Virus record (IMG/VR): IMGVR_UViG_3300033407_000007
Location: 6,546 to 70,545 of that record
Direction: 5' to 3' (one strand)
Source of the DNA: a virus
Lineage: Duplodnaviria > Caudoviricetes
Length of the DNA: 64,000 nt
The notes under the pieces are model-generated. The model searched no databases. It was not told the DNA's origin and saw only the letters and a program-made list of their open reading frames with translations. The translations under genes were made by a program, and so were the position numbers. This document shows positions 34,992 to 64,000 of this stretch, piece by piece. Positions within the stretch are counted from its first letter, which is position 1, and each line of letters opens with the position of its first letter.

Positions 34992-34992
34992 T

Positions 34993-35622
34993 ATGAGTTT
35001 ACGTTTTGCAAACTCTTGTTTTATGCACATACCCAGAACCGGTGGTATGTGGCTAGAAGAAGTCACCGAACGACTTGGTATCATACGTCAGAAATTCAAA
35101 GGAGATATAGACGCTCATTTAGCATGGAACAGTATGCCGCCCTTTTGGAGACAACTGCATCCATTCTCCTTCATCAGGCACCCTTGGTCCTGGGTGCGTA
35201 GTAGGTGGTCGCACAGCGTAGAACACGGCATTGCAGCAGACTACCGCCACTATGGCATCAACAGGGTATTTGATACCTATGTAATGCCGTCATTCGCAGA
35301 CACTCTACGTAAGATCCTAGCTGAAAATCCAGGCGTTGTGTCATGGACATTCAATAAAATAACTGAGGGTATCCCCAGAGAAAACCTGCGGTGTACTGAA
35401 GACCTGCCAGAAGCTGCCTGGGAACTATTGCACCGCTTTGAAGGGATTAGCCGAGAACAACTCCAAGTAATAGAAAGGGTACTGCCGATTAACGGTACGT
35501 CTAAAATGGACAAGTATCGCTTGGAACTTGATTCTGTGCCTACATCAATAATTCAAGATTTTATAACATCTGAAGACAGCCTAGTCCAACTCTGGCAGGA
35601 TTCCCGAATGATAAAGGATTAA
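34993..35622 (+). CDS. sulfotransferase family 2-like protein
   Basis: FMHIPRTGG (5'PSB) and FSFIRHPWSWVRSRW (3'PB). Confidence 0.8.
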   Translation: MSLRFANSCFMHIPRTGGMWLEEVTERLGIIRQKFKGDIDAHLAWNSMPPFWRQLHPFSFIRHPWSWVRSRWSHSVEHGIAADYRHYGINRVFDTYVMPSFADTLRKILAENPGVVSWTFNKITEGIPRENLRCTEDLPEAAWELLHRFEGISREQLQVIERVLPINGTSKMDKYRLELDSVPTSIIQDFITSEDSLVQLWQDSRMIKD

Positions 35623-35624
35623 CA

Positions 35625-36761
35625 ATGAATTATCAACACGGTAACTACGCAGACGAGTTCCGCAGCAGGAGCGGAGCCTATTGGACAGCGGCATCAGCGT
35701 ACGCCATAGGCAGCGGACCTCCACCGTGCAGGCCCTACCAGGTGGAAGTCCACCCAGTGCTGGTGGGCTCCCCAATCTGTCTTCAGCGGTGCGTGGACTG
35801 CCACGGGCAGTTTCATCGGGAGCGAGGAGTACTCACCCAATCCCACTACAACGAACTGATAGATGACTTGATCGCTATGAGGGTGCCATCGGTCGTACTG
35901 TCAGGGGTGTACTCCGACCCTTCATGCAACGAGTCCTTGCTAATGTCGTTTCTCTACCGCGGAGGCCCGCACTGGGGCGTCAAACTACACACCTACGGAC
36001 TAGGGATCACTCCCATGGTGCGAGAAGCCATCGTGCAGGCGTCGTTAGATGATCCATACAACCAGTCCTACGTTACGCTGTCAAAGAGCACGACTGACCC
36101 CGCTGTCTTCCGCGATATGTGCCGTCCTCTCGCTAATGCTCCAAATTTACAGGCGGAAGAGGCCAACCTCAGGGATCTGTTCAACCTAGTTGGTAGGCAC
36201 GGGTCCCGCATAGAGGTACGACTGAACTACCGCATCACGCGGATGAACGGGAGACCACACCAGATCGCCGACATTCTGCGATGGCTGGCCGACACTCCGC
36301 AGTTCGTCAAGATCAGATTCACTACAGACTACGTACCATCTGGAGCCTCTCTAGAGTACCTGAGCTGGTTCGCCAACAACGTATATATCCCACCAGGAGT
36401 CGCTCAAAATTCCATTAGCAAGGCCATCGTTGACGCCGAGTTCTGGGAAGTAGACCGCATCAGCTTCCGCGATCCAGAAGCATCCAACTACTCAGGCAAT
36501 ACTTGCTACAACGGACTCCTGTTCAGCACGGTGGCAGCCAACGGACGGCTGTACCCGTGTCAGGGAGTGGCCGTCAGCGCCTATGACCGACTGTCCTACG
36601 GCGACCTTACGCAGCGCAGGTTCTCTGAATGTTGGAAAGAGTACGTCGAGTTATGGAGGGATAGTAACCCTATCGAAGATGGCTGTCCCAAGTGCGCCGC
36701 ATCTTGTGAGCGTATGATCAACGATGCTATGGCCAAGGAGATCAACCGTGGAAGCCTATAG
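35625..36761 (+). CDS. radical SAM protein with SPASM/Twitch domain
   Basis: CLQRCVDC; CYNG...AANGRLYPC...CPKCAASC. Confidence 0.85.
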   Translation: MNYQHGNYADEFRSRSGAYWTAASAYAIGSGPPPCRPYQVEVHPVLVGSPICLQRCVDCHGQFHRERGVLTQSHYNELIDDLIAMRVPSVVLSGVYSDPSCNESLLMSFLYRGGPHWGVKLHTYGLGITPMVREAIVQASLDDPYNQSYVTLSKSTTDPAVFRDMCRPLANAPNLQAEEANLRDLFNLVGRHGSRIEVRLNYRITRMNGRPHQIADILRWLADTPQFVKIRFTTDYVPSGASLEYLSWFANNVYIPPGVAQNSISKAIVDAEFWEVDRISFRDPEASNYSGNTCYNGLLFSTVAANGRLYPCQGVAVSAYDRLSYGDLTQRRFSECWKEYVELWRDSNPIEDGCPKCAASCERMINDAMAKEINRGSL

Positions 36762-37683
36762 ACAGTTAGAGGTCAAGTTGGCAGAGTGGATTGAAACGCA
36801 TCCACGGCAGATGGTGGCGTGCAGCAGCGGTACCGCCGCGTTGCACCTAGCACTGGAGACTCTACGATCTGAATTCACCGGACCTGTCGTAGTACCAGAC
36901 TACACGATGGTGGCTTGTGCTAGAGCGGTCACCCTGGCTGACCGCAGGTGCGTGTTCGTGGGGTGCCGGGACGATCTACTGATGGACTTGGACGGTGTTC
37001 CCGAGAGTGCCAACGCGGTCATGCTGGTGCATATTTACGGCAGGCAGTCCGTTCCAGAGAGACACTACCCAGTCCAGATAGAGGACATGGCAGAACTGCA
37101 TGGACCCAAGCCCCAGATCAATAGTCGTGCGGCATGTTGGTCATTTTACCAGAACAAGGTGGTCCACGGAGAGGAAGGCGGAGCGGTTTGGTTCAAGAAT
37201 CCCAGAGATGCGGACCATGCGCGTCAGCTCCGGTGCGTGGGGTTCACCCCGGCCCATGACTTCATCCACATACCGAGAGGTCACAACTACCGGATGGCGA
37301 ACTGCTTGGCTGAAAAGATCATAGACAGCCTAGCTAACTTCTCCCAGGAAGTGACAAGACGACGTGAGGTAGAGTCCTACTACGACGGGCTAATCCCCGA
37401 CGGATGGCGCATGCCCAGCCGACTATCTCCGTGGGTCTATGACTTGAGGATACCCCATCTCACCCGCAGTAGGTTACTGGCGTCAGTCAACAAGCTGAAT
37501 TCTCGGGACGTGGAAGCCCGGGCCGGATTCGCCCCCATGACTATGCAGCCAGAGTACCACTCAGGGGTAACCACCCCCAGAACCCGCAGGGCCTACGACG
37601 AGGTGATGTACCTGCCCCTGACTCCCAGCCTAGGATACCGGGACGCAACCAGGGCCGTCGATCTACTGTGCGAGGGAGTCTGA
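36748..37683 (+). CDS. DegT/DnrJ/EryC1/StrS PLP sugar aminotransferase
   Basis: SSGTAALHLAL, IEDMAE, SFYQNK (PLP Lys), GEEGG, GHNYRM. Confidence 0.9.
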   Translation: MEAYRQLEVKLAEWIETHPRQMVACSSGTAALHLALETLRSEFTGPVVVPDYTMVACARAVTLADRRCVFVGCRDDLLMDLDGVPESANAVMLVHIYGRQSVPERHYPVQIEDMAELHGPKPQINSRAACWSFYQNKVVHGEEGGAVWFKNPRDADHARQLRCVGFTPAHDFIHIPRGHNYRMANCLAEKIIDSLANFSQEVTRRREVESYYDGLIPDGWRMPSRLSPWVYDLRIPHLTRSRLLASVNKLNSRDVEARAGFAPMTMQPEYHSGVTTPRTRRAYDEVMYLPLTPSLGYRDATRAVDLLCEGV

Positions 37684-43036: not shown

Positions 43037-44578
43037 CTACGCGGTAGGTTGTCGAGGGGATGGCTGCTGAGATAGTAGCTTCGCAAACGGCTCGACCACC
43101 TCTGACCCGGCACCCTGGAACCCGTTAGCTATCTTGCACACGGCACTCTTGCCGCGGACGCCGACCACGCGAACCTGGTAAGGTTCGCCGTCATCGCTCA
43201 TGATCCAGCGGGTCTTGCCTAGCAGGCCAGTGATGTTATTGGAATCCTTGGGCGGCTTAGGGGTCTTTTGTTTACGCTCCGCTGGAGGCAGCTCACCATT
43301 AGTCTGCTTCTGTTGCTTGATCGTCTTGATCTTCTCCTCTTGCTCCTCCTTGGGCGGTGCCTTGGTTACCTGCTCCTCGTTCAGGTCGGCTAGGCTGCCA
43401 ATGTCGATGCCCCCGACTACGGGATGTTCGTCCAAGTAAGCGAACCCATCTTCGTCCTCCTGGTAGTGGAGCGTGAGGTTGGCTTCGGTCAGCTTCTTGC
43501 CCTGGGTGGTGAGATTCCACGCCTTGATTAACAGAGCCATCTTGCCGTCCAAGCTGTTGTCGCCGTCCTCGATCATCGCGGCCAAGCACTTGCGGATGGG
43601 GGCCATGCTGCCGTCATCTCCGGCCAGCATCACGAACCAGTCGCACGCCACGCCCCACTGACTGAAGTCGATGATGGACTCGTCGTGCCGCTCGCTGTTC
43701 AGGTACGCGGTCTGATCGGTCTTGCTGGTGGCGAACAGGTACAGCAGGGCAGCGCAGTAGCCGCGGCCCAGAAACCGACACAGCTTGCCCTCGCTGTCCT
43801 CCGTACTGACGTGGTCAATAGCCCCTAGGATACGCTGATGGCGCTCCAGGAAGTTCACCGACTCGCTGTGCGTCCTGCGGGGTGAGAACCCATCGAGGTT
43901 CTCGGCAGTACGCACCCACAGCAACCGTATGGCGTAGTCAGTAGCCCTGGCGGCCTGCTTGCGTTCTCCTGGAGGAAGATCAGCGAAATAGGGGCTGCGG
44001 TAGATCACGTCGGCCAGCGTGCGCGGCTTGCACGTGTCCATCGTGTTGACCACCGCGTCGTCCTCGTCTACTCCAACGGCCACTAGCTTGTCGATGGTAG
44101 GCGGTCCGTGCAAGGCCGGATACAGTCCCGGGTCCTTGGCGTAGTCCTTGTCGGCGAGTACCAGGGCGATCAACTGGTGCTGGCCGTTCAGTACGTGTCC
44201 CATTTTGCCGATGATGACCGGCTCGCCGTTGTACCTCCAACGTCCTCGTAGGATCTCCTGCTTCAGAGCCAGCACGTTGCCCAGCGACAGTGGGCGGTTC
44301 ATCACGTTGTATTTGCACCGTACCTTAACGCTACTGTCATCTCCGTTCTTGCAACTAAAGAGGTAGTCGCCGCCGTATCTGACGTTACTGCCTCCCTTGC
44401 CCTCCTCCATCCATCCGAGGATCTCCTTGGCAGTCTCCGCGTCCAGTGGTGGCTTGTCGCCGCCTTCCTTGCACAGTGACACCTTCTCTGTTGGGTAGAG
44501 CACCTTAACTTCAGGCTGGTCTGATGTTACTACTGATGCATTGGTCCTGGTCTTGCTAGCCGCTTTTGCCTTAGCCAT
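43037..44578 (-). CDS. ParB/Srx-like (xGQH motif) domain protein, paralog 1
   Basis: NRPLS...RWRYNGEPVII...LNGQHQLIAL; KPRTLADV; C-terminal SH3/KOW-like segment. Confidence 0.7.
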   Translation of the reverse strand: MAKAKAASKTRTNASVVTSDQPEVKVLYPTEKVSLCKEGGDKPPLDAETAKEILGWMEEGKGGSNVRYGGDYLFSCKNGDDSSVKVRCKYNVMNRPLSLGNVLALKQEILRGRWRYNGEPVIIGKMGHVLNGQHQLIALVLADKDYAKDPGLYPALHGPPTIDKLVAVGVDEDDAVVNTMDTCKPRTLADVIYRSPYFADLPPGERKQAARATDYAIRLLWVRTAENLDGFSPRRTHSESVNFLERHQRILGAIDHVSTEDSEGKLCRFLGRGYCAALLYLFATSKTDQTAYLNSERHDESIIDFSQWGVACDWFVMLAGDDGSMAPIRKCLAAMIEDGDNSLDGKMALLIKAWNLTTQGKKLTEANLTLHYQEDEDGFAYLDEHPVVGGIDIGSLADLNEEQVTKAPPKEEQEEKIKTIKQQKQTNGELPPAERKQKTPKPPKDSNNITGLLGKTRWIMSDDGEPYQVRVVGVRGKSAVCKIANGFQGAGSEVVEPFAKLLSQQPSPRQPTA

Positions 44579-44636
44579 TGTCACACTCCTAGTAATAGGT
44601 GTTATGTCTACCGTGCGACGTGCACGGTAGGCCCTA

Positions 44637-51547: not shown

Positions 51548-51764
51548 CGATACACGTACAGAACGAGTGTTTAATCTACATGATCATGCTAGGCTACCTA
51601 GCGGGACGGTGTGTGTAGTGTGGGGCTACGAGTGGAGTGACGGTAATAACACGGCTGGTAAACCGCGTATCAGATACCATGGGTGGTTCTACCATATCCG
51701 TGAAGAAGGCAGCGGCGATGAGTCCATTGTGCCAGAAGATACGCTGAAACGGGTGATAGAATAG
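51540..51764 (+). CDS. small hypothetical protein
   Basis: Overlap-coupled with both neighbours. Confidence 0.5.
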   Translation: MGSDTRTERVFNLHDHARLPSGTVCVVWGYEWSDGNNTAGKPRIRYHGWFYHIREEGSGDESIVPEDTLKRVIE

Positions 51765-53917
51765 TGCGTATCTCGCTAGATACTGAAACTACCGGACTGG
51801 ACCTTAGGCATGGGGCCAGACCGTTCCTGGTTACTACTGCATTTGAGGAGGATAGCCAGGTTTACACGGACTATTGGGGACAGTGGCCAGTCGATCCTTA
51901 CACCCGCAAGGTGCGAGCCAGGTGTAGTGACCTGGTCAAGATCCAGAGGTGGATGGACGATGCTACAGAGTACGTGTTCCAAAATCCCAAGTTTGACTTG
52001 ACCGCGTTGTCTCTGCTGTTTGCTGACTACGGCATGACGTTCCGCTGGGACTGGAGTAAGGTACGTGATACTCTATTGGCCGGTCACTTACTGAAGAGCA
52101 ATCAGCCTCATGACCTAACTACCATGACACTGGTGTACCTAGGGATCAACGTGCAGCCCTATGAGGACGAGATCAAGCGATGCACGGTAGAGTGCCGGCG
52201 CATGGCCCAGGGCCGTAACCCACAGTACAACTGGCGTATTGCCAAGGAGGACAGCCCAAAAGACCCTAGACCAGAAATGCCTAGTGCCAAGGGTGAAACG
52301 TGGAAGAACGACATGTGGCTGCCCAGCTATGTGGCCAAAGTAATGGACTACCACCAAGATCACGAGTACCGCATCGCCTGTGTGGACTATAGCGTCAGTG
52401 ACAGTGACAGCACCTATAGGCTCTACGGTCATATGGAGCAGTTGCTGAAGGAACGAGGTTTGTGGTGTATCTACCAGGAGCGGCTCAAGCTGCTGCCTGT
52501 AGTCTATCAGATGGAGCAGTACGGCGTAACAGTCAACAAGGCCCGCTTGCGCAAGCTGCGGGACGAGTACCTGGCTGAGTCTGGCAAGGCTGGCAGTACG
52601 TGCTTGCGAATAGCCAAGGATTATGACTACAACCTACAACTGCCTAAGAGTGGGCGTAACGGCTCACTGACCAAGTTTGTTTTCGGTAGTCAGTACCTAG
52701 GTCTGGAGCCGTACGAAACCAGCGACAAGACCGGTGATCCCAGCCTCAACAAGCGGTGTAAGGAGCACTACGAGGTGGCACTAGACGAGGGATCACCGGC
52801 CTACGAGTTTATCACTAACCTAGGAGCCAAAACTAAACGGGATACTGCTCTGGGGTACATGGCAAGCTACGAGCGGTACTGGTTGCCCATGTCATTCCCT
52901 GATGGTGTAGAGTTCAATGTACTAGAGATGGCCAATGGCAAACCAGGTATTCACACTAGAATACGCCAAAGTGATACTTGGTTTAGACTACACCCCAGCC
53001 TGAACGCTACGGGTACGGATACCCTAAGATGGAGTAGCAGCAACCCGAACGAGCAGAACATCAGCAAGAAGGAGGGATTCAACCTGCGGTATGGGTTTGG
53101 TCCTGCTCCTGGTAGAGAGTGGTGGAGCGGTGATGCCAAGAACATCGAGCTGCGCATACCGGCCTACGAGAGCGAGCAGCAGGAGCTGATCGAGCTGTTT
53201 GAGCACCCAGACACGCCGCCGTACTACGGCAGCACGCATCTACTGAACTTTCACACGGTCTACCCTGACATCTGGGACGCCGCCCTGAAGAAAGTAGGAC
53301 TAGAGAAGGTAGGCCCGTACTGTAAGAATATCTACGCCAGTAGTTGGTATCAGTACTGTAAGAATGGTGGATTTGCGGTACAGTACGGCGCCATAGAGAT
53401 TGAGGGTAAGGAAGGCACGGCCGACAAGGCGTTTCACCGGCTAGGCAGCCACGCTAAGCTTAAGGCTAGGTTTGACAAGCTGGAGGCATTGAACAACGGC
53501 TGGATAGCAGTGGCCAACGACTGTGGCTACGTCGAAACTTTGCCAGACAAAACAGTAGACCCTGACCGTGGCTACCCTATCTGGTGCAGCCGTAGCCGAC
53601 ACGGACACGTCAAGCCCACCATCCCGCTGAACTACCACGTGCAGTCCACGGCGATGTGGTGGATGATGAAGGCCATGATCCGAGTGCAAGCGTACCTGGA
53701 CGATCTAAACGCCGTTGAGCCCAAGTACTTCATGGTCTGTCAAGTTCATGATGAACTCGTATTCGACTTCCCATACAGACCCAACAAAGGAAATATGCCT
53801 AAGATTAGGAAGCTTAGAAGACTGATGGAGCAAGGCGGAGACGATATCGGACTACCGACCCCAGTAGCATTCACCTATCATCCAGAAACATGGGCAACTG
53901 GAGAGTCAATACTATGA
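51764..53917 (+). CDS. family A DNA polymerase with 3'-5' exonuclease
   Basis: SLDTETTG; QNPKFD; TLRWSSSNPNEQN; SGDAKNIELR (motif A); KNGGFAVQYG (B); QVHDEL (C). Confidence 0.93.
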   Translation: MRISLDTETTGLDLRHGARPFLVTTAFEEDSQVYTDYWGQWPVDPYTRKVRARCSDLVKIQRWMDDATEYVFQNPKFDLTALSLLFADYGMTFRWDWSKVRDTLLAGHLLKSNQPHDLTTMTLVYLGINVQPYEDEIKRCTVECRRMAQGRNPQYNWRIAKEDSPKDPRPEMPSAKGETWKNDMWLPSYVAKVMDYHQDHEYRIACVDYSVSDSDSTYRLYGHMEQLLKERGLWCIYQERLKLLPVVYQMEQYGVTVNKARLRKLRDEYLAESGKAGSTCLRIAKDYDYNLQLPKSGRNGSLTKFVFGSQYLGLEPYETSDKTGDPSLNKRCKEHYEVALDEGSPAYEFITNLGAKTKRDTALGYMASYERYWLPMSFPDGVEFNVLEMANGKPGIHTRIRQSDTWFRLHPSLNATGTDTLRWSSSNPNEQNISKKEGFNLRYGFGPAPGREWWSGDAKNIELRIPAYESEQQELIELFEHPDTPPYYGSTHLLNFHTVYPDIWDAALKKVGLEKVGPYCKNIYASSWYQYCKNGGFAVQYGAIEIEGKEGTADKAFHRLGSHAKLKARFDKLEALNNGWIAVANDCGYVETLPDKTVDPDRGYPIWCSRSRHGHVKPTIPLNYHVQSTAMWWMMKAMIRVQAYLDDLNAVEPKYFMVCQVHDELVFDFPYRPNKGNMPKIRKLRRLMEQGGDDIGLPTPVAFTYHPETWATGESIL

Positions 53918-53949: not shown

Positions 53950-54360
53950 ATGCCAAAATTACCGACTAGTAAATTCAACATACCGATTAAGTTGTGCCAT
54001 GGTAAAGGTCCAGCATATAGTCGAGACGGTATGTGGGTTGAATGCACCTACCACAAAGCATCCACTGTTGTTGTGTGTTGTATTCAAGTGGACTATTGCG
54101 GATGTCAAAGAGGGGTACACCTGGAGATTAAATGGCTGGATCATAAAGGCGTGTACTTGTTAGATGGTTATTCAGAACCATCCATGTCGCCTACCAAGAG
54201 TATGCAGTGCAATGTAATGGCTTATGCTGATACGTTTGAACAATCCATAACAGATGGCAAGGCGTATGTGGTCAAGGCGCTGGAGTTTGTTACAACGAAG
54301 ATCAGGCAAGAGATAACTAGGCTGCATAAAGACCTGAACAAACTGGAGAACTACAGATGA
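53950..54360 (+). CDS. hypothetical protein
   Basis: 136 aa ORF, AT-richer. Confidence 0.5.
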   Translation: MPKLPTSKFNIPIKLCHGKGPAYSRDGMWVECTYHKASTVVVCCIQVDYCGCQRGVHLEIKWLDHKGVYLLDGYSEPSMSPTKSMQCNVMAYADTFEQSITDGKAYVVKALEFVTTKIRQEITRLHKDLNKLENYR

Positions 54361-55493
54361 AAATCTTAGAAGTAGCTAAGCTGTCGCCACAGGAACGGTT
54401 CCTATACTGGATTAAGGAGCGTGAGTCTATACGCTTGAAGAAAGAGGCTGGTAAACCTAAGCCATGGACTGATGATGAGATATTGCAGCTGTATAGGTTC
54501 TGCAATGTACGTCGCATGGACGACCGCGTCAGCCAGTGGTTGCTACACAACTGGTATGAGCCTAACTATGACCACGAAAACATGGTAGTGGCTTGCGTGT
54601 TGGCTAGACACTTCAATACCGAGGGTGCGTGTAAGTGTTTACACTTCCCCTCTGTATGGGCTCCCAAGGTTTTAATGAGTAGGTTGTCTAAGTACAAAGC
54701 ACAGGGGCATAACTTGTTCAATGCAGCCTACACTATCCACGCTAGCAAGGACTTCCCAAATAAATCCCGGATGGTGATCATGCAAACGTGTCAGCAATTC
54801 GTTGATGCACCCATTGTCCCGCATGATTACGATACTATGGAGAGATTCGTAATTGACTTGCAAAGGTACAAGAGCATCGGTAGTTTTATGGCTGGACAAA
54901 TTGCAGCGGATTTGAGATGGTCTACTAGTTGCCGTTGGAGCGATATTGGATCATGGGCACCGTTAGGGCCAGGTTCAAGCAGGGGGATCAATAGGTTGCT
55001 CGGATTGCGTACTGAGTCTAAGATCAACCAACATGTCTTTAATGACCACATGGACAAAGTTATCAGCTTATGTGCATGCCGCTTACAGTCTATAACTAGC
55101 AGATTGGAAGCAATCGATATACAAAATTGCTTGTGTGAGTTCGATAAGTATTGTAGGGCACTGTTAGGCGACGGCAAACCGAAACAATACTATGACGGGG
55201 TGGGTGTAATTGAGCTACGTAAGCCTCAACGTATGATATTACAATCGCTGTTAAGGTCTCGCAATGCGCTGTCAAGAAATCAGATTGCTGAAAGATCGGG
55301 CGTTGATCCTACGAAGATAGGTGATTATGCTGGGCCACGGCCCTACAATCAAGCTGACAAAGCTGTTAAGCGATGGAACTTTCCGGCTTTAGATACGCTA
55401 GGGATGGTTGCCATTAAGCAGCACGATGTTGGTGGAAGGGATTTAATGTTGTACACAATAACCCCACTAGGTGTAAGTACCCTAAAGGAGTAA
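54357..55493 (+). CDS. alpha-glutamyl/putrescinyl-thymine pyrophosphorylase (clade 1-like) with C-terminal HTH
   Basis: ERESIR...KPWTDDEIL..YRFCNVRR.DDRV; IQNCLCEFDKYCR; extension LSRNQIAERSGVD. Confidence 0.85.
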   Translation: MKILEVAKLSPQERFLYWIKERESIRLKKEAGKPKPWTDDEILQLYRFCNVRRMDDRVSQWLLHNWYEPNYDHENMVVACVLARHFNTEGACKCLHFPSVWAPKVLMSRLSKYKAQGHNLFNAAYTIHASKDFPNKSRMVIMQTCQQFVDAPIVPHDYDTMERFVIDLQRYKSIGSFMAGQIAADLRWSTSCRWSDIGSWAPLGPGSSRGINRLLGLRTESKINQHVFNDHMDKVISLCACRLQSITSRLEAIDIQNCLCEFDKYCRALLGDGKPKQYYDGVGVIELRKPQRMILQSLLRSRNALSRNQIAERSGVDPTKIGDYAGPRPYNQADKAVKRWNFPALDTLGMVAIKQHDVGGRDLMLYTITPLGVSTLKE

Positions 55494-55497
55494 GATA

Positions 55498-56646
55498 ATG
55501 CCAAAAGTGCCTAAGAAGCATGTACCAAAAGTGCCTAAGAAGCATGTACCAAGTAGTGCAAAACGCTCATTGATATACCCAGAAGTTAGCGTCAGTATTT
55601 GCACTGGTCATGACTCGCTAACATGCGACCAAGCTGTGCAATTGATGGGGTGGGTTTCTGAGAGTACATCAGTAAAATTTCACGATGACTACTTGTTTAA
55701 GGACGATAACGGTGCGAAAGTGCGATGCACAAACAACTGCAAGAATAGGCCATTCGATGAATCGTGGGCTAGGTCTATCGCTCAAGATATACTCAATAAA
55801 CAGTGGAAGCTGAACTTGGAAACTGTCATCATAGGAAGTACAGGTCAAGTTCTCAGTGGTCAACACAGGTTGTGCGCTCTGATACTAGCATGCCAAATGT
55901 GGGCAAAACATGACTATTGGCACGAGACGTGGGATGGTGAGCCTACTATTGATACGTTGGTGGCGTTTGGCGGTGATGAAAGCGAGGAATTTACCAGGAC
56001 ATTGGATAATGTCAAGCCGCGTACACTAGCTGACGTATTATTTACGTCTGGTATGTTTTCCCATCACAGGCCTAAGGATCGTAAGCATGTTACTAGGATG
56101 CTGGACTACGCAATTAGATTGCTGTGGGAACGTACTGGAGCATCCAATAACGCATTCTTGCCGCGCAGAACCCACAGCGAGGCTTTAGAGTTCATTAGCA
56201 ACCACCCGTCAATCGTAAAGTATGTTAACCACATTTACGAAGAAGACGCCCGAGGTTCACTAAAGAAACTAATGAGTCTTGGGTACTCATCAGGGTTGAT
56301 GTACCTAATGGCTGTTTCTGCCAGTGATTATGGGTTATACGCAGATGGTGGTAGGTGTGAGAATGCATTAGATATGGAGTACGAAGAAATGTCCTATGCA
56401 TTCTGGACAGAGTTGGCTGTAGGCAATTCGCTAAATGCTGTAAAAATTGCATTCACCGCCAGTGACGAGAATGACGAGTTAATACGAGTTGACGAGAAGA
56501 TTGCGATGGTATGTAAGGCATGGAATGCGTTTAAGGTGGGTGAGATTGTTGACGATGCTACAGTAACACTCAAGTACTCCATGGATGATGCAGGATACCC
56601 TTACTTGGATGAGCATCCTAACGTAGGGGGCATTGATGTTAACTAG
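55498..56646 (+). CDS. ParB/Srx-like (xGQHR) domain protein, paralog 2
   Basis: NRPFD...QWKLNLETVII...LSGQHRLCAL; co-linear with 43037-44578. Confidence 0.75.
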   Translation: MPKVPKKHVPKVPKKHVPSSAKRSLIYPEVSVSICTGHDSLTCDQAVQLMGWVSESTSVKFHDDYLFKDDNGAKVRCTNNCKNRPFDESWARSIAQDILNKQWKLNLETVIIGSTGQVLSGQHRLCALILACQMWAKHDYWHETWDGEPTIDTLVAFGGDESEEFTRTLDNVKPRTLADVLFTSGMFSHHRPKDRKHVTRMLDYAIRLLWERTGASNNAFLPRRTHSEALEFISNHPSIVKYVNHIYEEDARGSLKKLMSLGYSSGLMYLMAVSASDYGLYADGGRCENALDMEYEEMSYAFWTELAVGNSLNAVKIAFTASDENDELIRVDEKIAMVCKAWNAFKVGEIVDDATVTLKYSMDDAGYPYLDEHPNVGGIDVN

Positions 56647-57394
56647 ATCATATAGGGAGGTTAGCTCAAGGGCATGCAAGAGACTGGTTTTAGATCACCA
56701 CTACAGCGGAAGAATGCCCTCTAATATCCAATTGTGCTACGCTGACACTACGTCACCACCTTTGACAGTATTGGCGTGTGCATTATTCTCCATAGCTGCT
56801 GGTCGGTGGGAAGCGTCGAACCTATGGGAATTGACCAGATTGGTCAGACTGGATGACTACGACACCCAGCTAACAAGGTTGATTGGAAAATCAATCGGCT
56901 ACATTAGATCGCGCAAGTTAACTGACTTAGTGTTATCGTTTGCAGATCTGGAGGAAGATCACCATGGTGGAATTTACCAGGCATCATCTTGGATCTATAG
57001 TGGTCCAACTGGATCTAGATTAGATGGGTTCAACGTAGACGGCGTATTTGTGCCAGCCAGGACGTGTAACGTGCGATACGGCACTAGTAGCGTGGATGGC
57101 GTAATCAGTGCTGTACCAGATTCGCTTGTTGAACCGCACTATGATCAAGGTAAGCACCTCTATTGGAAGCCTCTGAATAGGGTTGGAATGCAACAGGCAA
57201 TGCGTATGGGGCTAAAGAGCTTGCCATACCCTAAGCCGATGCTAATAAACGGGGTGCCTACCAATCGCAGCCAATCTGAGTTCATGGCCAAAGGCAAGGT
57301 AAATTTAACCGCCAGCACCCATACCATAAACCACGCCGATGCAAAGCCCCTGCAACTTGGAAAAGTAATGGCGCACAAAAAAGGCCCCAGGTAA
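56633..57394 (+). CDS. Mom-like GNAT DNA-modification protein
   Basis: HHYSGR, WELTRL, SFAD...HHGGIYQASSWIYSG. Confidence 0.8.
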   Translation: MMLTRSYREVSSRACKRLVLDHHYSGRMPSNIQLCYADTTSPPLTVLACALFSIAAGRWEASNLWELTRLVRLDDYDTQLTRLIGKSIGYIRSRKLTDLVLSFADLEEDHHGGIYQASSWIYSGPTGSRLDGFNVDGVFVPARTCNVRYGTSSVDGVISAVPDSLVEPHYDQGKHLYWKPLNRVGMQQAMRMGLKSLPYPKPMLINGVPTNRSQSEFMAKGKVNLTASTHTINHADAKPLQLGKVMAHKKGPR

Positions 57395-57404
57395 TCCTGA
57401 GGCC
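57376..57404 (-). terminator. intrinsic terminator for the 57429-57815 gene
   Basis: AAAAAA-GGCCCCAGG-TAAT-CCTGAGGCC. Confidence 0.7.
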
Positions 57405-57428
57405 TACGGTCGTTAGCGTTGCGCGATA

Positions 57429-57815
57429 TCATTGGCATTTCTTGGCGAGTGCACGACCCGCAGCCTCCAATGCATATACGTACCCTCGGACTCTCTCAAT
57501 GGTGGATATGGTGATGAGTTTCTTGGCCTCTAGATCTTTCAGGCTATTCAGCCACGCACCACTATATTTGCCGTCACGGCCGATGCCGACCCCGTCTTTG
57601 AGGTCATTCATACTGATTTGTTTTTTGGCAGCGAAGAGTACACGCAATATGCGTACCTGGTCAGTAGTAATTCCTAGCCTCTTGGATGCATCCTTAGCCC
57701 CGTCATCCTGCCGCTTGGATTGTGCATCCTTCTTCACTTGGGCCTTCTTGGGGGTTGCGGCCTTCTTGGTGGACTTGGTGGCGGGGGTCTTCTTCGTGGT
57801 CTTCTTGGTAGCCAT
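57429..57815 (-). CDS. winged-helix protein with histone-H1-like K/A/T-rich N-terminus
   Basis: MATKKTTKKTPATKSTKKAATPKK; QVRILRVL...SLKDLEAKKLI...YVYAL. Confidence 0.75.
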   Translation of the reverse strand: MATKKTTKKTPATKSTKKAATPKKAQVKKDAQSKRQDDGAKDASKRLGITTDQVRILRVLFAAKKQISMNDLKDGVGIGRDGKYSGAWLNSLKDLEAKKLITISTIERVRGYVYALEAAGRALAKKCQ

Positions 57816-57870
57816 CGTTTCGCTCCTTAGTTAGATTTTCGACAGGCTGGAACACCCAGTCAACAACCTT

Positions 57871-57899
57871 ATCATAGGGACCTTATCGGCAAAAGTAAA
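57871..57899 (-). promoter_or_regulatory. sigma70-like promoter TTTACT-17-TATGAT
   Basis: Good consensus and spacing; GCCGATAAGG spacer shared with 42834-42843. Confidence 0.65.
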
Positions 57900-57995
57900 G
57901 CACAAACCGCTGGAAATTTGAGCTGGAAATTTGAGGGGTTTTGGAAAGTATTTATAATACCTTATATAACAACACCTTACGACTGGAGAAATACC

Positions 57996-59036
57996 ATGCA
58001 ATTGACCGTCCGTAACGTGAATCACGCCTTCTACGAGCTGGTTTCTGGGATCGACTCCGGCAAAATTCCCACCGTTCGCAGGCCCAGTAGGGTGGGCGAG
58101 ATTCTTCAGATTCCGGAGCCTCTACTACTCACCTACACCCATCCACGGGAAAAGGTGTTGTTGAACCCTGCACGAGACTGCAACCCGTTTTTCCATCTGT
58201 ACGAATCTCTATGGATGCTGGCCGGTCGCAACGACGTAGCACCGCTGGCGTGCTACAACAGCCGGATGCCTGAATTCTCTGATGATGGCTCCACGTTCCA
58301 CGGTGCCTACGGCTATCGCTGGCGCAAGTGGTTCGGGTTCGACCAGTTGGATGCCATCGTAGACGAATTACGTAAAGACCCTAACAGCCGTCGATGTGTA
58401 CTTCAGATGTGGGACTCAACAGTGGAGCCGCCTCATACAATAGAATGTAGTGATCCGTACATGGCTGTCAACGGGGGCAAGGACGTGCCATGCAACACCC
58501 AAGCCTACTTCTCTGTAAGAAGGGAGTGTGTTACTCTCCCAGATTATCACGACCAAACAGATGGTAGCTACGCCGAATACCTGGACATGACAGTCTGCAA
58601 TCGCAGCAACGATATCGTTTGGGGTATGTTGGGAGCGAACGCTGTGCACTTCGCTATTCTCCAGGAGTACCTAGCCGCGAGAATCGGCGTGGAGGTAGGT
58701 GTGTACAACCAATTCACGAACAACGCTCACGTCTACACAGAACGGTTTACGCCTGAGAAGTGGCTAGATGGTTGGGAACCTAGTTACCCAATCTACAAGA
58801 AACGGGATATGGATATTCCTCAAGAAGAGTTGGAACAGTTCGTTGCAGACCAGTCGGCGTCAGATTGTACTGGTGAGTACAACCACCCGTTTTTGGAACA
58901 TGTAGCGAAGCCGATGTGTTGGGCATTTCATGCACATAAGGAACGGAATGGAATGGCCGTTGGTATAGCAGACACGATCGCTTCCCTCGATTGGCGGGAA
59001 GCTGCCATAACTTGGCTGTGTAGGAGGGCGAAGTGA
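57996..59036 (+). CDS. thymidylate-synthase-family enzyme, probably dUMP hydroxymethylase
   Basis: GAYGYRWR, NSRRCVLQMW, VPCN (catalytic Cys), NRSNDIVWGMLGAN (Asn indicates dUMP), HVY; C-terminal DW..A..WL.RR extension. Confidence 0.85.
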   Translation: MQLTVRNVNHAFYELVSGIDSGKIPTVRRPSRVGEILQIPEPLLLTYTHPREKVLLNPARDCNPFFHLYESLWMLAGRNDVAPLACYNSRMPEFSDDGSTFHGAYGYRWRKWFGFDQLDAIVDELRKDPNSRRCVLQMWDSTVEPPHTIECSDPYMAVNGGKDVPCNTQAYFSVRRECVTLPDYHDQTDGSYAEYLDMTVCNRSNDIVWGMLGANAVHFAILQEYLAARIGVEVGVYNQFTNNAHVYTERFTPEKWLDGWEPSYPIYKKRDMDIPQEELEQFVADQSASDCTGEYNHPFLEHVAKPMCWAFHAHKERNGMAVGIADTIASLDWREAAITWLCRRAK

Positions 59037-59194
59037 AATGCCTGATCCAGTGTTGACCGAGGCTGATTTCGTGCGTAGATACTATGGAGTTTGATAGTAA
59101 GGTATAATAAGTAGGGCACCAGTTAAGTGGAGGAAATACCATGGCGTGTGTGACAATTTAATACTTCAAATTATCAAAGGAAAAAGGTGGCCTC

Positions 59195-59736
59195 ATGTCT
59201 CATGATCCAGTTCTGACGAAGAAAGACTTCGTCAGGAGGTACTCTTAGCTGGCGAGTTCGGCAACGCAAGTCCTACTTGGCCTACGGTAGCCGACTATTT
59301 AGCATCATCTTATGATGGGTTAGTGCATTTACGTAATCGCGTAAAGGGTGGACCGACACATTATAACCAGACTCGCGATCAGGTTAACGGTAGATACTTT
59401 CTGCCTACTGACAATTTCTACGTATCAGCTATGGCCCCCCATGAGTACAATTTACTACAGGGTGAGGTGCAGCAAGGTGTGTGGGGGTTGGAATTATATT
59501 GCTCACCGTCTGTAGGATTGCCTATGCGCGATGCACTGCGCGAAGTATCCTACAGCCTGCGAGGATTATCAGCTACACAGATCCTACGTAGTAAAATGAA
59601 CGATTTAAGTTGGCAATGGCTGGAGTATCTACTTGAAACGTATCCAGATCATGTCGTAGAGTTCTCGTGCTTCAGTAAATGCTGGGGTACGGTCCCCGGC
59701 TATAATACAGTCTTTTGGGAGGTTCGTGCATTTTGA
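59195..59736 (+). pseudogene. hypothetical gene split by an apparent frameshift near 59243
   Basis: MSHDPVLTKKDFVRRYS* in one frame continues as LAGEFGNASPTW...FWEVRAF* in another. Confidence 0.5.
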
Positions 59737-59787
59737 CTAAACTTGGAAGACCACCTAAATCTAAGATAATTTGACTAAGGAGAAGTT

Positions 59788-60216
59788 ATGAACCCTACTG
59801 AGTACCAAAACCTGGCAGCGCGTACAGAATGCGATCAGGCAGCAGCTCGTGAGCGAATGACGGTTGCCAGACCGTACAGTGACGTACTCACCACGGTTGA
59901 TGGTAGTAGGCTATTCCCTATTCGCATGAATCACGCTCTAATGGGTATGATGGGCGAAGTCGGCGAGCTGGCTGGGGCAATTGAGAACTGGATTCAGTAC
60001 AATCGAGGACTGGACCTGGTAAACATCAAGGAAGAGTTGGGGGACCTGATGTGGTACATCGCCCTGATGTGTAATGCTTCAGGCATCTCACTAGAAGAGG
60101 TGATGGAGAAGAACATCGCCAAGCTGAGGCTGCGGTATCCAGACAAGTACAGCGACCATAATGCCGCGGAAGAGAACCGTGACCGTGCCGCAGAAAGGAA
60201 CGCCCTAGATGACTGA
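59788..60216 (+). CDS. MazG-like NTP pyrophosphohydrolase
   Basis: GMMGEVGE...KEELGDLMWY...KNIAKLRLRYP. Confidence 0.9.
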   Translation: MNPTEYQNLAARTECDQAAARERMTVARPYSDVLTTVDGSRLFPIRMNHALMGMMGEVGELAGAIENWIQYNRGLDLVNIKEELGDLMWYIALMCNASGISLEEVMEKNIAKLRLRYPDKYSDHNAAEENRDRAAERNALDD

Positions 60217-61080: not shown

Positions 61081-61311
61081 ATGCCTAAAATCATCATAGA
61101 TTACCCAGAGCAAGTTTCTAACATAGCTGCTCTGAACTACGTTCAGTCAGTAGTACGACAAGGAAAGGTCAGCGAAGCACGCGGCTACAAAAAATACTGT
61201 CATGCCACCGTGTTCAAAGTTGAGTCGCTCGGCAATCTGGTCGTGTACTGCCGGGACAAGCGTAAGAACGACGGCCCGGACTCGTTCGACGTACGACTGG
61301 GGACGACGTAG
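61081..61311 (+). CDS. small hypothetical protein
   Basis: 76 aa; TAG/GTG-coupled to the next gene. Confidence 0.5.
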   Translation: MPKIIIDYPEQVSNIAALNYVQSVVRQGKVSEARGYKKYCHATVFKVESLGNLVVYCRDKRKNDGPDSFDVRLGTT

Positions 61312-61796
61312 TGAAGGGCCATCGTACGATAGCTATCCTGGAGGTAATGTGGGGAGATCCGCCGAAGACCAGCATGGCCAATCCTAACTACCTGGCGCAG
61401 GCTCCGCGGTGCTTCCGGATTAACCCCCAGAACCATAGCGGACGCCGTTTGTACACTTTGCTGGGACATCGTAACCTACTGGTGACCAATGCCTGCCCAC
61501 AGTTAGTAGACTCGTCCAGAGGTTGTGGCAACCCGGACGCTGAGTGGCTCAAGGAGTCGCTGCTGGAACTATGGCCGTTCGATCTGCTGCTGGTCTGTGG
61601 TAGCGTTGCCCAGGATACGTATGGCCAGATTGATCTAGGCTATTCGTGCCGTACGCTGTACATACCTCACCCGGCAGCCAGGCAGTGGAGTCGACGCGAC
61701 CAGTCATTTGCTGCTGCTATCATCCAAGAAGGTAAGGCTGACCTCCACTTACGATTCCGTAATGGTAGACTCAGGGCACAAATCCTAACACAGTAG
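61311..61796 (+). CDS. divergent UDG-fold protein (putative)
   Basis: NHSGRRL, VTNAC, LLLVCGSVA, PHPAAR. Confidence 0.55.
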   Translation: MKGHRTIAILEVMWGDPPKTSMANPNYLAQAPRCFRINPQNHSGRRLYTLLGHRNLLVTNACPQLVDSSRGCGNPDAEWLKESLLELWPFDLLLVCGSVAQDTYGQIDLGYSCRTLYIPHPAARQWSRRDQSFAAAIIQEGKADLHLRFRNGRLRAQILTQ

Positions 61797-62316
61797 AGAT
61801 AGAGGGTTAGCTAACAAGCGGTCAGTGTGGACCGTGGCTTCGGAGGCATATGCTGGTGCACACTTTGCTACGTTCCCTCGTAAGCTGATCACACCTTGTA
61901 TTCTGGCTGGTACGTCTGAGAAAGGTTGCTGTAGTTCGTGTGGTAGTCCCTGGAGAAGAGTAACCGATGTGGAGAAGCTAACACGGGTTAGACCCAACGA
62001 TTATGTCAAGCGTACCGGGGAACCAGGTACTGGCAACAGTTGTGCTAACAGCGTAGCAGGTGTGTCAGTAAAGACCTTAGGGTGGGAACCTACGTGTAGC
62101 TGTGATGCTGACGTGAGGCCGTGCGTAGTGCTTGACCCATTCGTAGGCAGTGGTACGACGTGCTACGTGGCGGTGACGAACGGCCGATGGGGGTGGGGGA
62201 TCGACCTGAGTGAGGAGTACCTACGTAATAACGCGATACCCAGGCTGGAGGGTATAGGTATTTCCTACCCAGCATATTCGGGGATGTTTAGTTATCCCCA
62301 TAAAGCGGTATTCTAG
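61789..62316 (+). pseudogene. C-terminal half of an N4-C/N6-A DNA methyltransferase
   Basis: NKRSVWTV, HFATFP..LI.PCILAG, VLDPFVGSGTT, GIDL; in-frame stop at 61786, no SPPY/DPPY half. Confidence 0.7.
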
Positions 62317-62370: not shown

Positions 62371-64000
62371 ATGCCGAGAGTACCCGTACCGAGCGAAACA
62401 TCCGATTTAAGGCCCCTAGCACGCCGTCTAAGGGCCTTGCAGGACCTCCTGAGTAATGTAGTACCCGTACCCGAGGAGTGGCTAGGAGGACGCGCTAGGG
62501 CTTCTGCGAATGTAGCTACCCTGACCCCCTGCACGTCGTACGCCAAGCTGGTCAACGCCTGGCGGCAGGCTCTGCGGTGGACGGACGGGCTGGACTGCTC
62601 TCTGAGCGTAATGCTGGCTGCCAGTGCCAGTACGTGCCTGATGGGAGAACAGCTCTGGTTCAAAATCATTGGCCCACCTAGCTGCATTGGTCCAGACACG
62701 CCAATCTATGACCCAGTGGCTAAGACCACCAAGACAGTGTATGAGCGATGGAAAGATGGCAGTAAGTTCTGGGTACTGTCAAGGAGGGTGGATGGCTCTT
62801 ACGTGACAGCAGAAGCGCTGCCCCCTCAACAGCACCCAGAAGCAGAACTCGTTAGATTGGATTTTGCATCTGGTAAGTCAATCGTGACTACTTATGGTCA
62901 CAGGATCTGGAATGGGTCTTCTTACTGTGACGTTGCTTCCATCGTTCGTGCCTTGCCTGAATGCGGGACTTACCGTCTTCCGTCTTGCGAGGAGGAACGC
63001 CAGATTGTTGAAGCGCACGACGCATCACAACCTGACCAATGTGTAGGTGCTGACATATCTCAGTATAGGTTTGACCGTTCTGGTACATCACCACAGCTTC
63101 ACGTTGCTTCCACTCAGGACATTTCACAGGCATCACTGTACTCCGTTGCTAAGGGTAAGGTATTGGCGAACCTATTAATCTTACCCGTATTTGATCACAT
63201 AGTAAACGCCACACCGTTAGGTCTTGGGCATTACTACGATTTCTGTGTGCCAGAGACGGGAAATTACTGGGCTCAAGGAGTATTTCACCACAACTGTGGC
63301 AAGACCACGGTGTTGGAAGGTCTCTCGATCAACAAGCAGTACGTGTTCAGCAAGGACAGTATACGAGGGTTTTATCAGGGATGGAAATCAGAAGACGGTA
63401 GTGACCTGTCCATCGCTGCGATGGCCAACCGCATGACGCTGGCTACCAAGGATGGGGACACGCTGCTGAAGAGCCCTAACCTGTCACAGATCCTCAGCGA
63501 GGCACGAGGGTTGTACGACCGTGTAGGGCGCACGCATTACCGCAACGCGGTAATGAACGAGTACGAGGGCCATCGTATGACATGGCTGCTGGCTGGCACT
63601 AAGTCTCTGCGTGAGATCGACGCGTCAGAACTAGGTACCAGATTCCTGGACTGCGTGGTTATGGATGATATAGATGATGAATTTGAGGATGAGGTAATGT
63701 GGCGTGCCGTCAATCAGGAGGCCGAGGCCATGATGGCCGAGAGCAACGGCGACCCAGACAATCACCATCCAGAGGCCCTAACTCGCGCCATGAAGATGAC
63801 CGGTGGGTACTTGTCCTATCTGCGTGAGAACGTGGTAGATCTATTGAGTCGCGTAGAGTCTCCTCCGGAAGACCGTCGTACCTGTGCTGCTTATGGTAAG
63901 TTTACGGCCTATATGCGTGCCAGACCGGTTAGGGGAGTGGACGACAACGAGGTGGACCGGGAGTTTGGGGCTAGGCTGGGCAAGCAAATGGCTCGCCTGG
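62371..64000 (+). CDS. P-loop ATPase/helicase, intein-containing, runs off the window (not in ORF track)
   Basis: Frame open from ATG 62371 to the edge; spliced Walker A GPPS|CGKT; KDGDTLL Walker B-like. Confidence 0.8.
   Translation, partial: MPRVPVPSETSDLRPLARRLRALQDLLSNVVPVPEEWLGGRARASANVATLTPCTSYAKLVNAWRQALRWTDGLDCSLSVMLAASASTCLMGEQLWFKIIGPPSCIGPDTPIYDPVAKTTKTVYERWKDGSKFWVLSRRVDGSYVTAEALPPQQHPEAELVRLDFASGKSIVTTYGHRIWNGSSYCDVASIVRALPECGTYRLPSCEEERQIVEAHDASQPDQCVGADISQYRFDRSGTSPQLHVASTQDISQASLYSVAKGKVLANLLILPVFDHIVNATPLGLGHYYDFCVPETGNYWAQGVFHHNCGKTTVLEGLSINKQYVFSKDSIRGFYQGWKSEDGSDLSIAAMANRMTLATKDGDTLLKSPNLSQILSEARGLYDRVGRTHYRNAVMNEYEGHRMTWLLAGTKSLREIDASELGTRFLDCVVMDDIDDEFEDEVMWRAVNQEAEAMMAESNGDPDNHHPEALTRAMKMTGGYLSYLRENVVDLLSRVESPPEDRRTCAAYGKFTAYMRARPVRGVDDNEVDREFGARLGKQMARL
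62683..63294 (+). mobile_element. mini-intein (204 aa) inserted in Walker A
   Basis: Block A CIGPDTPIYD; block B TTYGHRIW; block F YYDFCVP..GNYWAQG; block G HHN followed by Cys+1; no LAGLIDADG/HNH on the sense strand. Confidence 0.92.
62888..63133 (-). CDS. HTH protein encoded antisense inside the intein
   Basis: GGAG 7 nt before ATG 63133; KQREAVVMYQNGQTYTEICQHLHIGQVVMRRALQQSGV. Confidence 0.6.
   Translation of the reverse strand: MPVKCPEWKQREAVVMYQNGQTYTEICQHLHIGQVVMRRALQQSGVPPRKTEDGKSRIQARHERWKQRHSKKTHSRSCDHK

Follow-up and report, generated by a model that had tools for sequence, protein, structure and literature searches.

The window analysed in this study, a 64,000-nucleotide stretch of the IMG/VR virus record IMGVR_UViG_3300033407_000007 (bases 6546-70545), carries a putative DNA hypermodification cluster at positions 54357-60216. 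The record of 70,545 bp is rated 100% complete by CheckV. The cluster is located within the replication module, 3' of a family A DNA polymerase gene and 5' of the primase and helicase genes, and all of its genes save one for a lysine-rich protein are encoded on the plus strand. In a preliminary description of this DNA, five genes had been named in the region: an aGPT-PPlase, a ParB-like protein, a Mom-like GNAT, a thymidylate synthase (TS)-family enzyme with a uracil-specifying asparagine and a MazG-like pyrophosphatase. All five are real and have the open reading frame (ORF) boundaries given there, and the analyses presented below bear out each of the assignments. The cluster comprises the following features:

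54357..55493, plus strand: PF18723 domain (residues 1-280) and MarR-like winged helix (residues 283-378), assigned by Pfam and a structural model
55498..56646, plus strand: ParB1, ParB/Srx-fold protein of the DGQHR type with an N-terminal nucleotide-binding-type domain and a helical C-terminal domain, assigned by an AlphaFold model
56633..57394, plus strand: Mom-family GNAT (PF25680, phrog_1384), start probably ATG 56636
57382..57405, no strand assigned: G+C-rich hairpin and T-run between the convergent Mom and lysine-rich genes, 10-bp stem with 7 G-C pairs
57429..57815, minus strand: small winged-helix protein with a tail rich in Lys, Thr and Ala, encoded convergently to Mom
57996..59036 (ORF open from 57918), plus strand: TS-family enzyme, predicted dUMP hydroxymethylase (phrog_5131, E 1.4e-92)
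59323..59736, plus strand: orf137, a companion gene kept between those for TS and MazG
59788..60216, plus strand: MazG-like nucleoside triphosphate pyrophosphohydrolase (PF03819, E 1.1e-12; phrog_229, E 1.2e-37)

The TS-family enzyme is a putative dUMP hydroxymethylase. It is 43% identical to gp51 of Pseudomonas phage PaMx11, has its catalytic cysteine in a VPCN motif and possesses, within GANAVHF, an asparagine where the cytosine-specific MilA has aspartate. ATG 57996, probably the true start, is preceded by a promoter-like site at 57931-57958. The MazG-like protein matched its profile with 48.5 bits (cut-off 22). The relatives considered in the following belong to a comparison set of approximately 250 related loci (L numbers) and of related genomes (G numbers). 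Homologs of orf137 with 48-49% identity occupy the same position in L007 and L092, and the gene follows TS in 17 loci; searches of Pfam, PHROG and the Atlas gave no lead to its function.

The PF18723 protein and its proposed ParB-fold partner

The protein encoded at 54357-55493 matched PF18723 with an E-value of 1.5e-49 and 169 bits (cut-off 25), which confirms the accession proposed earlier. The family was formerly named aGPT-Pplase clade 1 and is at present listed by Pfam as HMUDK_hel ("5-hmdU DNA kinase, helical domain"; 5-hmdU, 5-hydroxymethyl-deoxyuridine). It is a clade other than that of the proven transferase, which is PF18724. In PaMx11, the PF18723 protein is gp50, whose gene is flanked by those of gp49 (P-loop kinase) and gp51 (TS-like), and the glycine:DNA transferase gp46 belongs to PF18724.

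The structural model of the window protein (pLDDT 92.5) consists of two parts. For residues 4-280 the best match was the crystal structure of PaMx11 gp46/PUGT (8z2m; Z 11.2, 224 residues aligned, root-mean-square deviation (rmsd) 4.3), followed by helix-hairpin-helix DNA glycosylases and DUF2419. Residues 283-378 form a MarR-type winged helix (Z 12.4, rmsd 1.3). The gp46 match was obtained with VIA-align; Foldseek recovered the winged helix alone. Cys260 of the window protein aligns with the catalytic Cys247 of gp46, the nucleophile that attacks C6 (PMC11472151), and the pair Cys260-Glu261 is invariant in 38 diverse family members. Because of the PUGT fold and this invariant Cys-Glu pair, the PF18723 family looks catalytic. 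Clade 1 comprises 372 cultured-phage records and thousands of metagenomic proteins. Neighbouring genes were counted within 7 kb, here and in all later locus counts: a TS-family gene was present in 66 of 76 PF18723 loci, a kinase in 43 and a clade-2 transferase in 20, and approximately 26 of the loci displayed just PF18723 and TS. PF18723 is tied to the TS gene.

The following gene codes for ParB1, the AlphaFold model of which reached a pLDDT of 87. At the sequence level, ParB1 had no match in Pfam even at an E-value of 1, the ParB_N models included, and phmmer against PDB sequences returned nothing; a Foldseek search with the model was without significant match. With VIA-align, residues 28-175 matched PadC (Z 6.4), pNOB8 ParB (5.1), KorB (5.0), the serine kinase SerK (4.4) and sulfiredoxin (4.2), and the six best matches, with Z between 4.2 and 6.4, were all of the ParB/Srx fold. 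ParB1 contains an SGQHR motif, of the GxxR type, that is invariant across its clade. In the ESM Atlas it is structurally placed beside a 'DGQHR domain' cluster (TM 0.60/0.82); PF02195 was found on just 11% of the members of a near Atlas cluster. More than 360 proteins, almost all of them from viruses and without annotation, form the ParB-like family; relatives of ParB1 in viral contigs were found by an alignment search, a single-sequence search having found none. A second member is encoded in the early region of the window genome:

38433..40241, minus strand: UvrD-like helicase, near the ParB2 gene
43037..44584, minus strand: ParB2, paralog of ParB1 with 39% identity, near the UvrD-like helicase gene

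Relatives in the ParB2 clade are usually encoded beside a UvrD-like helicase gene in the early region. In a quick maximum-likelihood tree, ParB1 and its L006-8 ortholog formed a pair with 100% support, in a clade other than that of ParB2.

The ParB1 gene adjoins the long form of PF18723 in every lineage that has this form, and a PF18723 domain with fused winged helix was seen only where a ParB1 gene follows, namely in the window, in L006-8/L093/L127/L130 and in L094. Two more such pairs are probably P0126 with P0003 and P0123 with P0004 on Logan contigs of 74,593 bp and 7,833 bp, their members having been paired solely by the equal size of the contigs. A complex prediction for the PF18723 protein and ParB1 yielded an ipSAE of 0.51, against 0.00 for the best control. 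This mark was reached by 58 of 80 solved complexes and by 2 of 110 mismatched pairs, and scores up to 0.60 account for only 7 of the 80 solved complexes and for both mismatches that passed. At least 42% of the contacts were shared between runs, with a partner pLDDT of at least 80. The prediction thus lends weak support to a complex of the two proteins. In the slot after the polymerase, a ParB-like gene of the same family abuts an N6/N4 methylase gene in two further loci (L059:8001-9943 and L095:5542-9182, in both cases between polymerase and primase). For a subclass of phage thymine dioxygenases, activation on double-stranded DNA by ParB proteins has been shown recently (PMC13229309). Taken together, the pairing with the long PF18723 form, the other modifier neighbours, the complex prediction and the dioxygenase precedent make it most economical to view ParB1 as an accessory protein by which the PF18723 enzyme is loaded onto DNA or activated there.

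Searches for a kinase and a clade-2 transferase

In the known pathway, a 5-hmdU DNA kinase is followed by the clade-2 transferase and by tailoring enzymes (PMC8989533). The preliminary description had found no 5-hmdU kinase in the window, and this holds for the whole 70,545-bp record: the Pfam models PF18748 and PF18747 had no match in it, and the kinases of PaMx11 and G004 matched nothing in the six frames of the genome when used as phmmer queries. A profile of 14 kinases likewise retrieved nothing from the window genome and matched the control genomes G004 and G010 at 6e-67 and 2e-45. With unfiltered hidden Markov models (HMMs) over all six frames, the kinase signal amounted to noise, and PF18723, TS and Mom were recovered at E-values below 1e-120; the full-genome HMM search suggested earlier therefore yielded PF18723 and Mom, and not 5-HMUDK. 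The clade-2 amino-acid:DNA transferase (AADT, PF18724) had no match in the complete genome, the best E-value of our own HMM being 0.64. Within the cluster, no tailoring enzyme dependent on flavin adenine dinucleotide (FAD), pyridoxal phosphate (PLP) or radical S-adenosylmethionine (SAM) was found. With neither kinase nor clade-2 transferase, the known thymine pathway is therefore not present as such. From the parallel drawn earlier with phiW-14, SP10, ViI and M6, one of the three defining post-replicative parts, the clade-1 protein, was recovered; the kinase and the clade-2 transferase were not.

The genomes G006, G007, G008 and G011 (loci L135, L171, L184 and L140), all 100% complete, carry PF18723 directly beside TS, with no P-loop kinase anywhere and no ParB1. 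This minimal pair of PF18723 and TS seems to be a common configuration. RP13-type phages likewise possess aGPT-Pplase1 and no detectable 5-hmdU kinase (PMC13697223). As the kinase-less state is common, it is not by itself proof that ParB1 is a kinase.

The Mom-family GNAT and the separable modules

The Mom gene overlaps the end of the ParB1 gene, in the window as well as in L007. Its product matched PF25680 over profile positions 5-202 of 202 with 64.7 bits (cut-off 27.1), and the alignment of the window Mom lineage to Mu Mom with hhalign had a probability of 94.9% over residues 17-201; a phmmer search against PDB sequences was empty. The Mu Mom residues H58, Y59, R111, D149 and Y159 are kept in the window protein, and S124 corresponds to Thr81, with Ser at this position in L005. 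Mu Mom uses Gly-tRNA to attach glycine to the N6 position of adenine in double-stranded DNA, where the adduct rearranges to 6-NcmdA, and Mom is not an acetyl-CoA enzyme (PMC13219725). The family assignment of the window protein is sound, and from it we infer Gly-tRNA as donor and adenine N6 as acceptor. No tRNA-Gly was found in the window, the sole tRNA of which is one tRNA-Met. The acetyltransferase gp48 of PaMx11 is an ordinary GNAT (PF00583) and not a Mom protein. The Mom subfamily with the HHGGIYQ motif is represented by at least 578 confirmed stretches in viral contigs, and 75 of its 80 best loci are without a nearby thymine-pathway gene. The hairpin at 57382..57405 is followed by TTTTTT on the minus strand.

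The full order of long PF18723, ParB-like, Mom, convergent lysine-rich gene, TS, orf137, MazG and primase was found in one other lineage (L006-8, L093), which shares 35-61% protein identity with the window, has a TS gene with an intein and carries a 5'-deoxynucleotidase gene before TS. Inteins were located in the TS-like gene L007:11131-13050, with an HNH endonuclease, and in a ThyX gene, L095:10424-11947. L003/G001 (100% complete) contains the polymerase, a Mom of 57% identity, the lysine-rich gene and the primase, and G003 (100% complete) a Mom of 36% identity. Neither has TS, PF18723 or Tet_JBP, the latter search having had no positive control and many phage dioxygenases escaping that model according to the literature. 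L094 carries the polymerase, the long PF18723 and ParB1 without Mom. The syntenic genome G004 has the polymerase, two PF18723 genes, a P-loop kinase, a 330-amino-acid gene, TS, orf137, MazG and the primase, with neither ParB1 nor Mom. Since the relatives carry each of them in differing combinations, Mom, the PF18723/ParB pair and the TS/orf137/MazG trio are separable.

A 504-amino-acid protein encoded at L246:6992-8506 is a fusion of Mom (residues 3-192, E 2.7e-26) and AADT PF18724 (residues 230-463, E 2.1e-26). The locus is a canonical thymine cluster of the order PLP enzyme, Mom-AADT, P-loop kinase, PF18723, GIY-YIG homing endonuclease, TS and HD nucleotidase. This fusion demonstrates that a physical link between Mom domains and thymine chemistry is possible. 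In P0288, P0321 and P0325 (528-547 amino acids), a Dam-type adenine methylase domain (PF02086) is fused to an AADT domain. The recurring pattern is one of an adenine modifier joined to a thymine modifier, and the fusions therefore fit a modification of both bases.

The lysine-rich winged-helix protein is conserved in L006-8 (53% identity) and L003 (36%), and a strong hairpin with a T-run follows its gene. Minus-strand genes of the same build, with a Lys/Ala/Thr-rich (histone-H1-like) tail and a winged helix, are located just upstream of TS in the canonical clusters L114-L119, L151 and L154 (among them L154:11997-12398, L115:12102-12686, L114:12401-12802, L116:11916-12533, L119:12389-12733 and L151:13131-13460), which is why we regard this small DNA-binding protein as a regular passenger of thymine clusters. 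The winged helix of the proteins from canonical clusters matched the C-terminal extension of the PF18723 protein with an E-value of 2e-13. The PF18723 proteins of the ParB-paired lineages seem to have acquired a copy of this domain by fusion.

Two genes precede the cluster:

51764..53917, plus strand: family A DNA polymerase with 3'-5' exonuclease (PF00476, E 4.4e-22; PF01612)
53950..54360, plus strand: orf136, Cys-rich, no family assigned

In all relatives, the cluster is anchored upstream by the polymerase gene, which is syntenic in L003, L007, L092, L094 and L095. No significant Pfam or PHROG match was obtained for orf136. Its position is not conserved among the relatives, and in L094 the polymerase gene directly abuts the PF18723 gene. 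At the DNA level, the region showed no resemblance to cultured phages outside the TS-like gene, for which the best matches were the Pseudomonas phages PaMx11, Ab18 and ZC01, Bordetella phages and phiRSL1. Downstream of the cluster, a 161-amino-acid ORF at 61311-61796 weakly matched the uracil-DNA glycosylase superfamily (E 0.004), which would bear on a genome that routes dUMP into DNA precursors. A 163-amino-acid ORF at 61825-62316 matched just the last 34 positions of an N6/N4 DNA methylase profile; its length would not accommodate a complete methylase. The ORF is conserved in L095, at 55% identity, and to a weak degree in L005. The ends of the record overlap, as the helicase ORF at the window end matches the first ORF of the record with 95.7% identity over 70 residues (window 62371-63999, genome 45-569). 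A protein identity of 95.7% and not 100% suggests a mixed-population assembly or an imperfect terminal repeat.

A sugar operon at 28638-37683 of the window encodes a GDP-mannose 4,6-dehydratase, a sugar C-methyltransferase, a DegT aminotransferase, a GT1-like protein and a methyltransferase-GNAT fusion. DegT occurs in two of 11 related genomes, the window genome and G004. In SP-15-like phages, such sugar blocks glycosylate thymine-derived bases; by analogy, the target of the window operon could be DNA rather than the virion.

Interpretation and known systems

Gene identities, folds, residues, gene order, co-occurrence and absences were computed in this study, and the chemistry set out here is deduced from them. 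We propose that this uncultured phage modifies both thymine and adenine and that the ParB-like protein is an accessory of the PF18723 enzyme, a reading that we give about an even chance. The cluster would then be an island in the replication module in which separable modules jointly modify two bases, a view whose probability we place about midway. The thymine branch would be a variant not described so far: where relatives have a kinase, it has a clade-1 enzyme with fused winged helix and a ParB/DGQHR-fold partner. Of the two options raised in the preliminary description, a modification of both T and A or an acylation of the modified T by the GNAT, the comparison of loci favours the first. The second came out weaker, given that Mom uses Gly-tRNA, that PaMx11 gp48 is not a Mom protein and that a T-amine transferase is missing; the L246 fusion keeps the idea alive.

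Before replication, the TS-family enzyme would convert dUMP to 5-hydroxymethyl-dUMP, and the MazG-like pyrophosphatase, perhaps together with orf137, would clear competing dTTP or dUTP, so that the phage polymerase could then place 5-hmdU into DNA instead of T; family and context point to these three steps. After replication, the PF18723 protein may flip out 5-hmdU and attack its C6, by which the 5-hydroxymethyl group would become exchangeable for another group. These are the least certain steps of the scheme. The fused winged helix and ParB1 would serve as loading or activating partners on double-stranded DNA, the PF18723-ParB1 pair occupying the slot that in related phages holds another PF18723 gene together with that of a P-loop 5-hmdU DNA kinase. 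Independently, the Mom-family GNAT would, judged by its family membership, transfer glycine from Gly-tRNA to adenine N6, and the glycyl adduct would rearrange to N6-carbamoylmethyl-adenine as in phage Mu. The lysine-rich winged-helix protein may be a DNA-binding regulator or a coat protein that travels with such clusters.

Several points weigh against this proposal. The fold matches of ParB1 are middling (Z 4-6.4), and ParB1 is not a general requirement, since the four complete genomes described above contain PF18723 and TS with neither kinase nor ParB1. In M6, glycine transfer in vitro did not require the clade-1 protein gp55 (PMC8989533), and members of PF18723 may thus lack transferase activity. 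On the adenine side, the essential R151 of Mu Mom is Glu107 in the window protein, followed by an invariant HHGG, and the identity to Mu Mom is only 24%; the base or the donor of the window Mom could differ from those of Mu. Finally, the genes for ParB1, Mom and the PF18723 protein are translationally coupled, and a Mom-AADT fusion exists, the only one in the 120 best homologs and on one 69.6-kb viral contig; both observations would fit a joint pathway too.

The result for M6 gp55 would also fit a thymine chemistry that ends at 5-hmdU, with the PF18723-winged-helix protein and ParB1 reading or organising the hmdU-containing DNA, for instance during replication or packaging or to control transcription. 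Pfam treats PF18723 as a helical, non-catalytic kinase domain, the fused domain is a DNA-binding one of the MarR type, ParB-fold proteins are typically DNA clamps or switches, and the cluster lacks the PLP, radical-SAM or FAD enzymes of tailoring. However, the Cys-Glu pair of clade-2 chemistry, invariant in 38 clade-1 sequences, would be hard to explain for a reader of DNA, and we consider this alternative unlikely.

ParB1 itself might be the missing kinase, phosphorylating 5-hmdU in DNA before the PF18723 enzyme displaces the phosphate. Its fold includes SerK, SbnI and sulfiredoxin, which keeps a kinase role under consideration: the fold family has true phosphotransferases, and SbnI was matched with Z 3.2 in addition to the higher values for SerK and sulfiredoxin. 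All members of the ParB1 clade keep the SGQHR motif, the syntenic slot of G004 is taken by a P-loop kinase gene, and the window genome is devoid of such a kinase. On the other hand, genomes with PF18723 and TS that lack both a kinase and ParB1 are common, so a kinase is not obligatory for clade 1. Paralogs from this family are found with UvrD helicases and with DNA methylases, enzymes for which no kinase is required, and the arginine of the motif varies across the wider ParB-like family. Nucleotide-site mutants of the 5mYOX-associated ParB were, moreover, not completely inactive (PMC13229309). A kinase function of ParB1 is therefore rather improbable in our judgement. We are equally doubtful of a kinase-free thymine hypermodification by the PF18723 enzyme and ParB1 in which the Mom-like enzyme then aminoacylates the product from a charged tRNA; in such a route, either the ParB-fold protein would give a nucleotide-dependent activation or the hydroxyl would be exchanged directly.

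A joint pathway to a new thymine derivative, in which the Mom-like GNAT uses an aminoacyl-tRNA to acylate the 5-hmdU hydroxyl or an amine installed by PF18723 and leaves adenine untouched, would agree with the ParB1/Mom gene overlap, with the L246 fusion beside P-loop kinase, PF18723 and TS, with the loss of Arg151 in the window's Mom subfamily and with the feasibility of acyl transfer onto a thymine-borne amine in PaMx11 (PMC8989533), but is very improbable in view of the Mom orthologs (57% and 36% identity) in complete genomes without a 5-hmU source, the 75 of 80 Mom loci without a thymine-pathway gene, the one Mom-AADT fusion in 120 homologs next to three of the Dam-type methylase and the PF18723-ParB1 pair without Mom in L094.

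Clade-1 aGPT-Pplases were predicted in 2013, and only clade 2 has a proven activity. With an intact catalytic cysteine and neither kinase nor clade-2 transferase, the window cluster is a compact natural test case for clade 1, and the complete genomes with PF18723 and TS only are similar ones. If the two-base proposal is correct, the pairing of winged-helix PF18723 with ParB extends the ParB activation of base-modifying enzymes to a second enzyme class, and DNA with modified bases on both sides of the A:T pair would withstand restriction systems of many kinds. The enzymes of the phage could serve as reagents. Should the kinase-free joint route apply, it would lead to a base not yet described and provide the first function for clade-1 aGPT-Pplases.

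The clusters of PaMx11 and M6 (PMC5889632, PMC8989533) share with the window a TS-family enzyme, in the window a predicted dUMP hydroxymethylase, an adjacent PF18723 gene, a nearby MazG-type pyrophosphatase and the location in a replication module. In contrast to them, the window genome has no P-loop kinase and no clade-2 transferase, its cluster has no FAD, PLP or radical-SAM tailoring enzyme, and its PF18723 protein possesses a fused winged helix and a ParB-fold partner. SP-15-like phages such as RP13 (PMC13697223) similarly combine a clade-1 gene with a TS homolog in the absence of a kinase, and a sugar-nucleotide/glycosyltransferase operon is present in the window genome as well; polymerase type and genome size are different. 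With Mu Mom (PMC13219725), the window protein has PF25680, the five kept residues and an insertion region resembling a helix-turn-helix that aligns over a similar length in common. The window gene lacks a Com-like regulator and is coupled to a ParB-like gene in the replication module, whereas that of Mu is located at the genome end.

In the ParB-dependent thymine dioxygenases (PMC13229309), as in the window, a ParB-fold protein without obvious DNA-binding domain is encoded beside an enzyme that acts on thymine-derived bases in double-stranded DNA. The partner in the window is of the PF18723/PUGT fold, however, and no TET/JBP dioxygenase was found; 5-hmU would instead originate from the TS-like enzyme before replication, and ParB1, a DGQHR-type protein, is not recognised by the Pfam ParB models. 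DndB/DGQHR proteins of phosphorothioation systems have a ParB-like fold and a GQHR motif and occur beside DNA-modifying enzymes. ParB1 differs from them in being phage-encoded, in its partner enzymes and in the absence of sequence-level matches in Pfam or PDB, but shares the fold, the GQHR motif and the neighbourhood of DNA modifiers.

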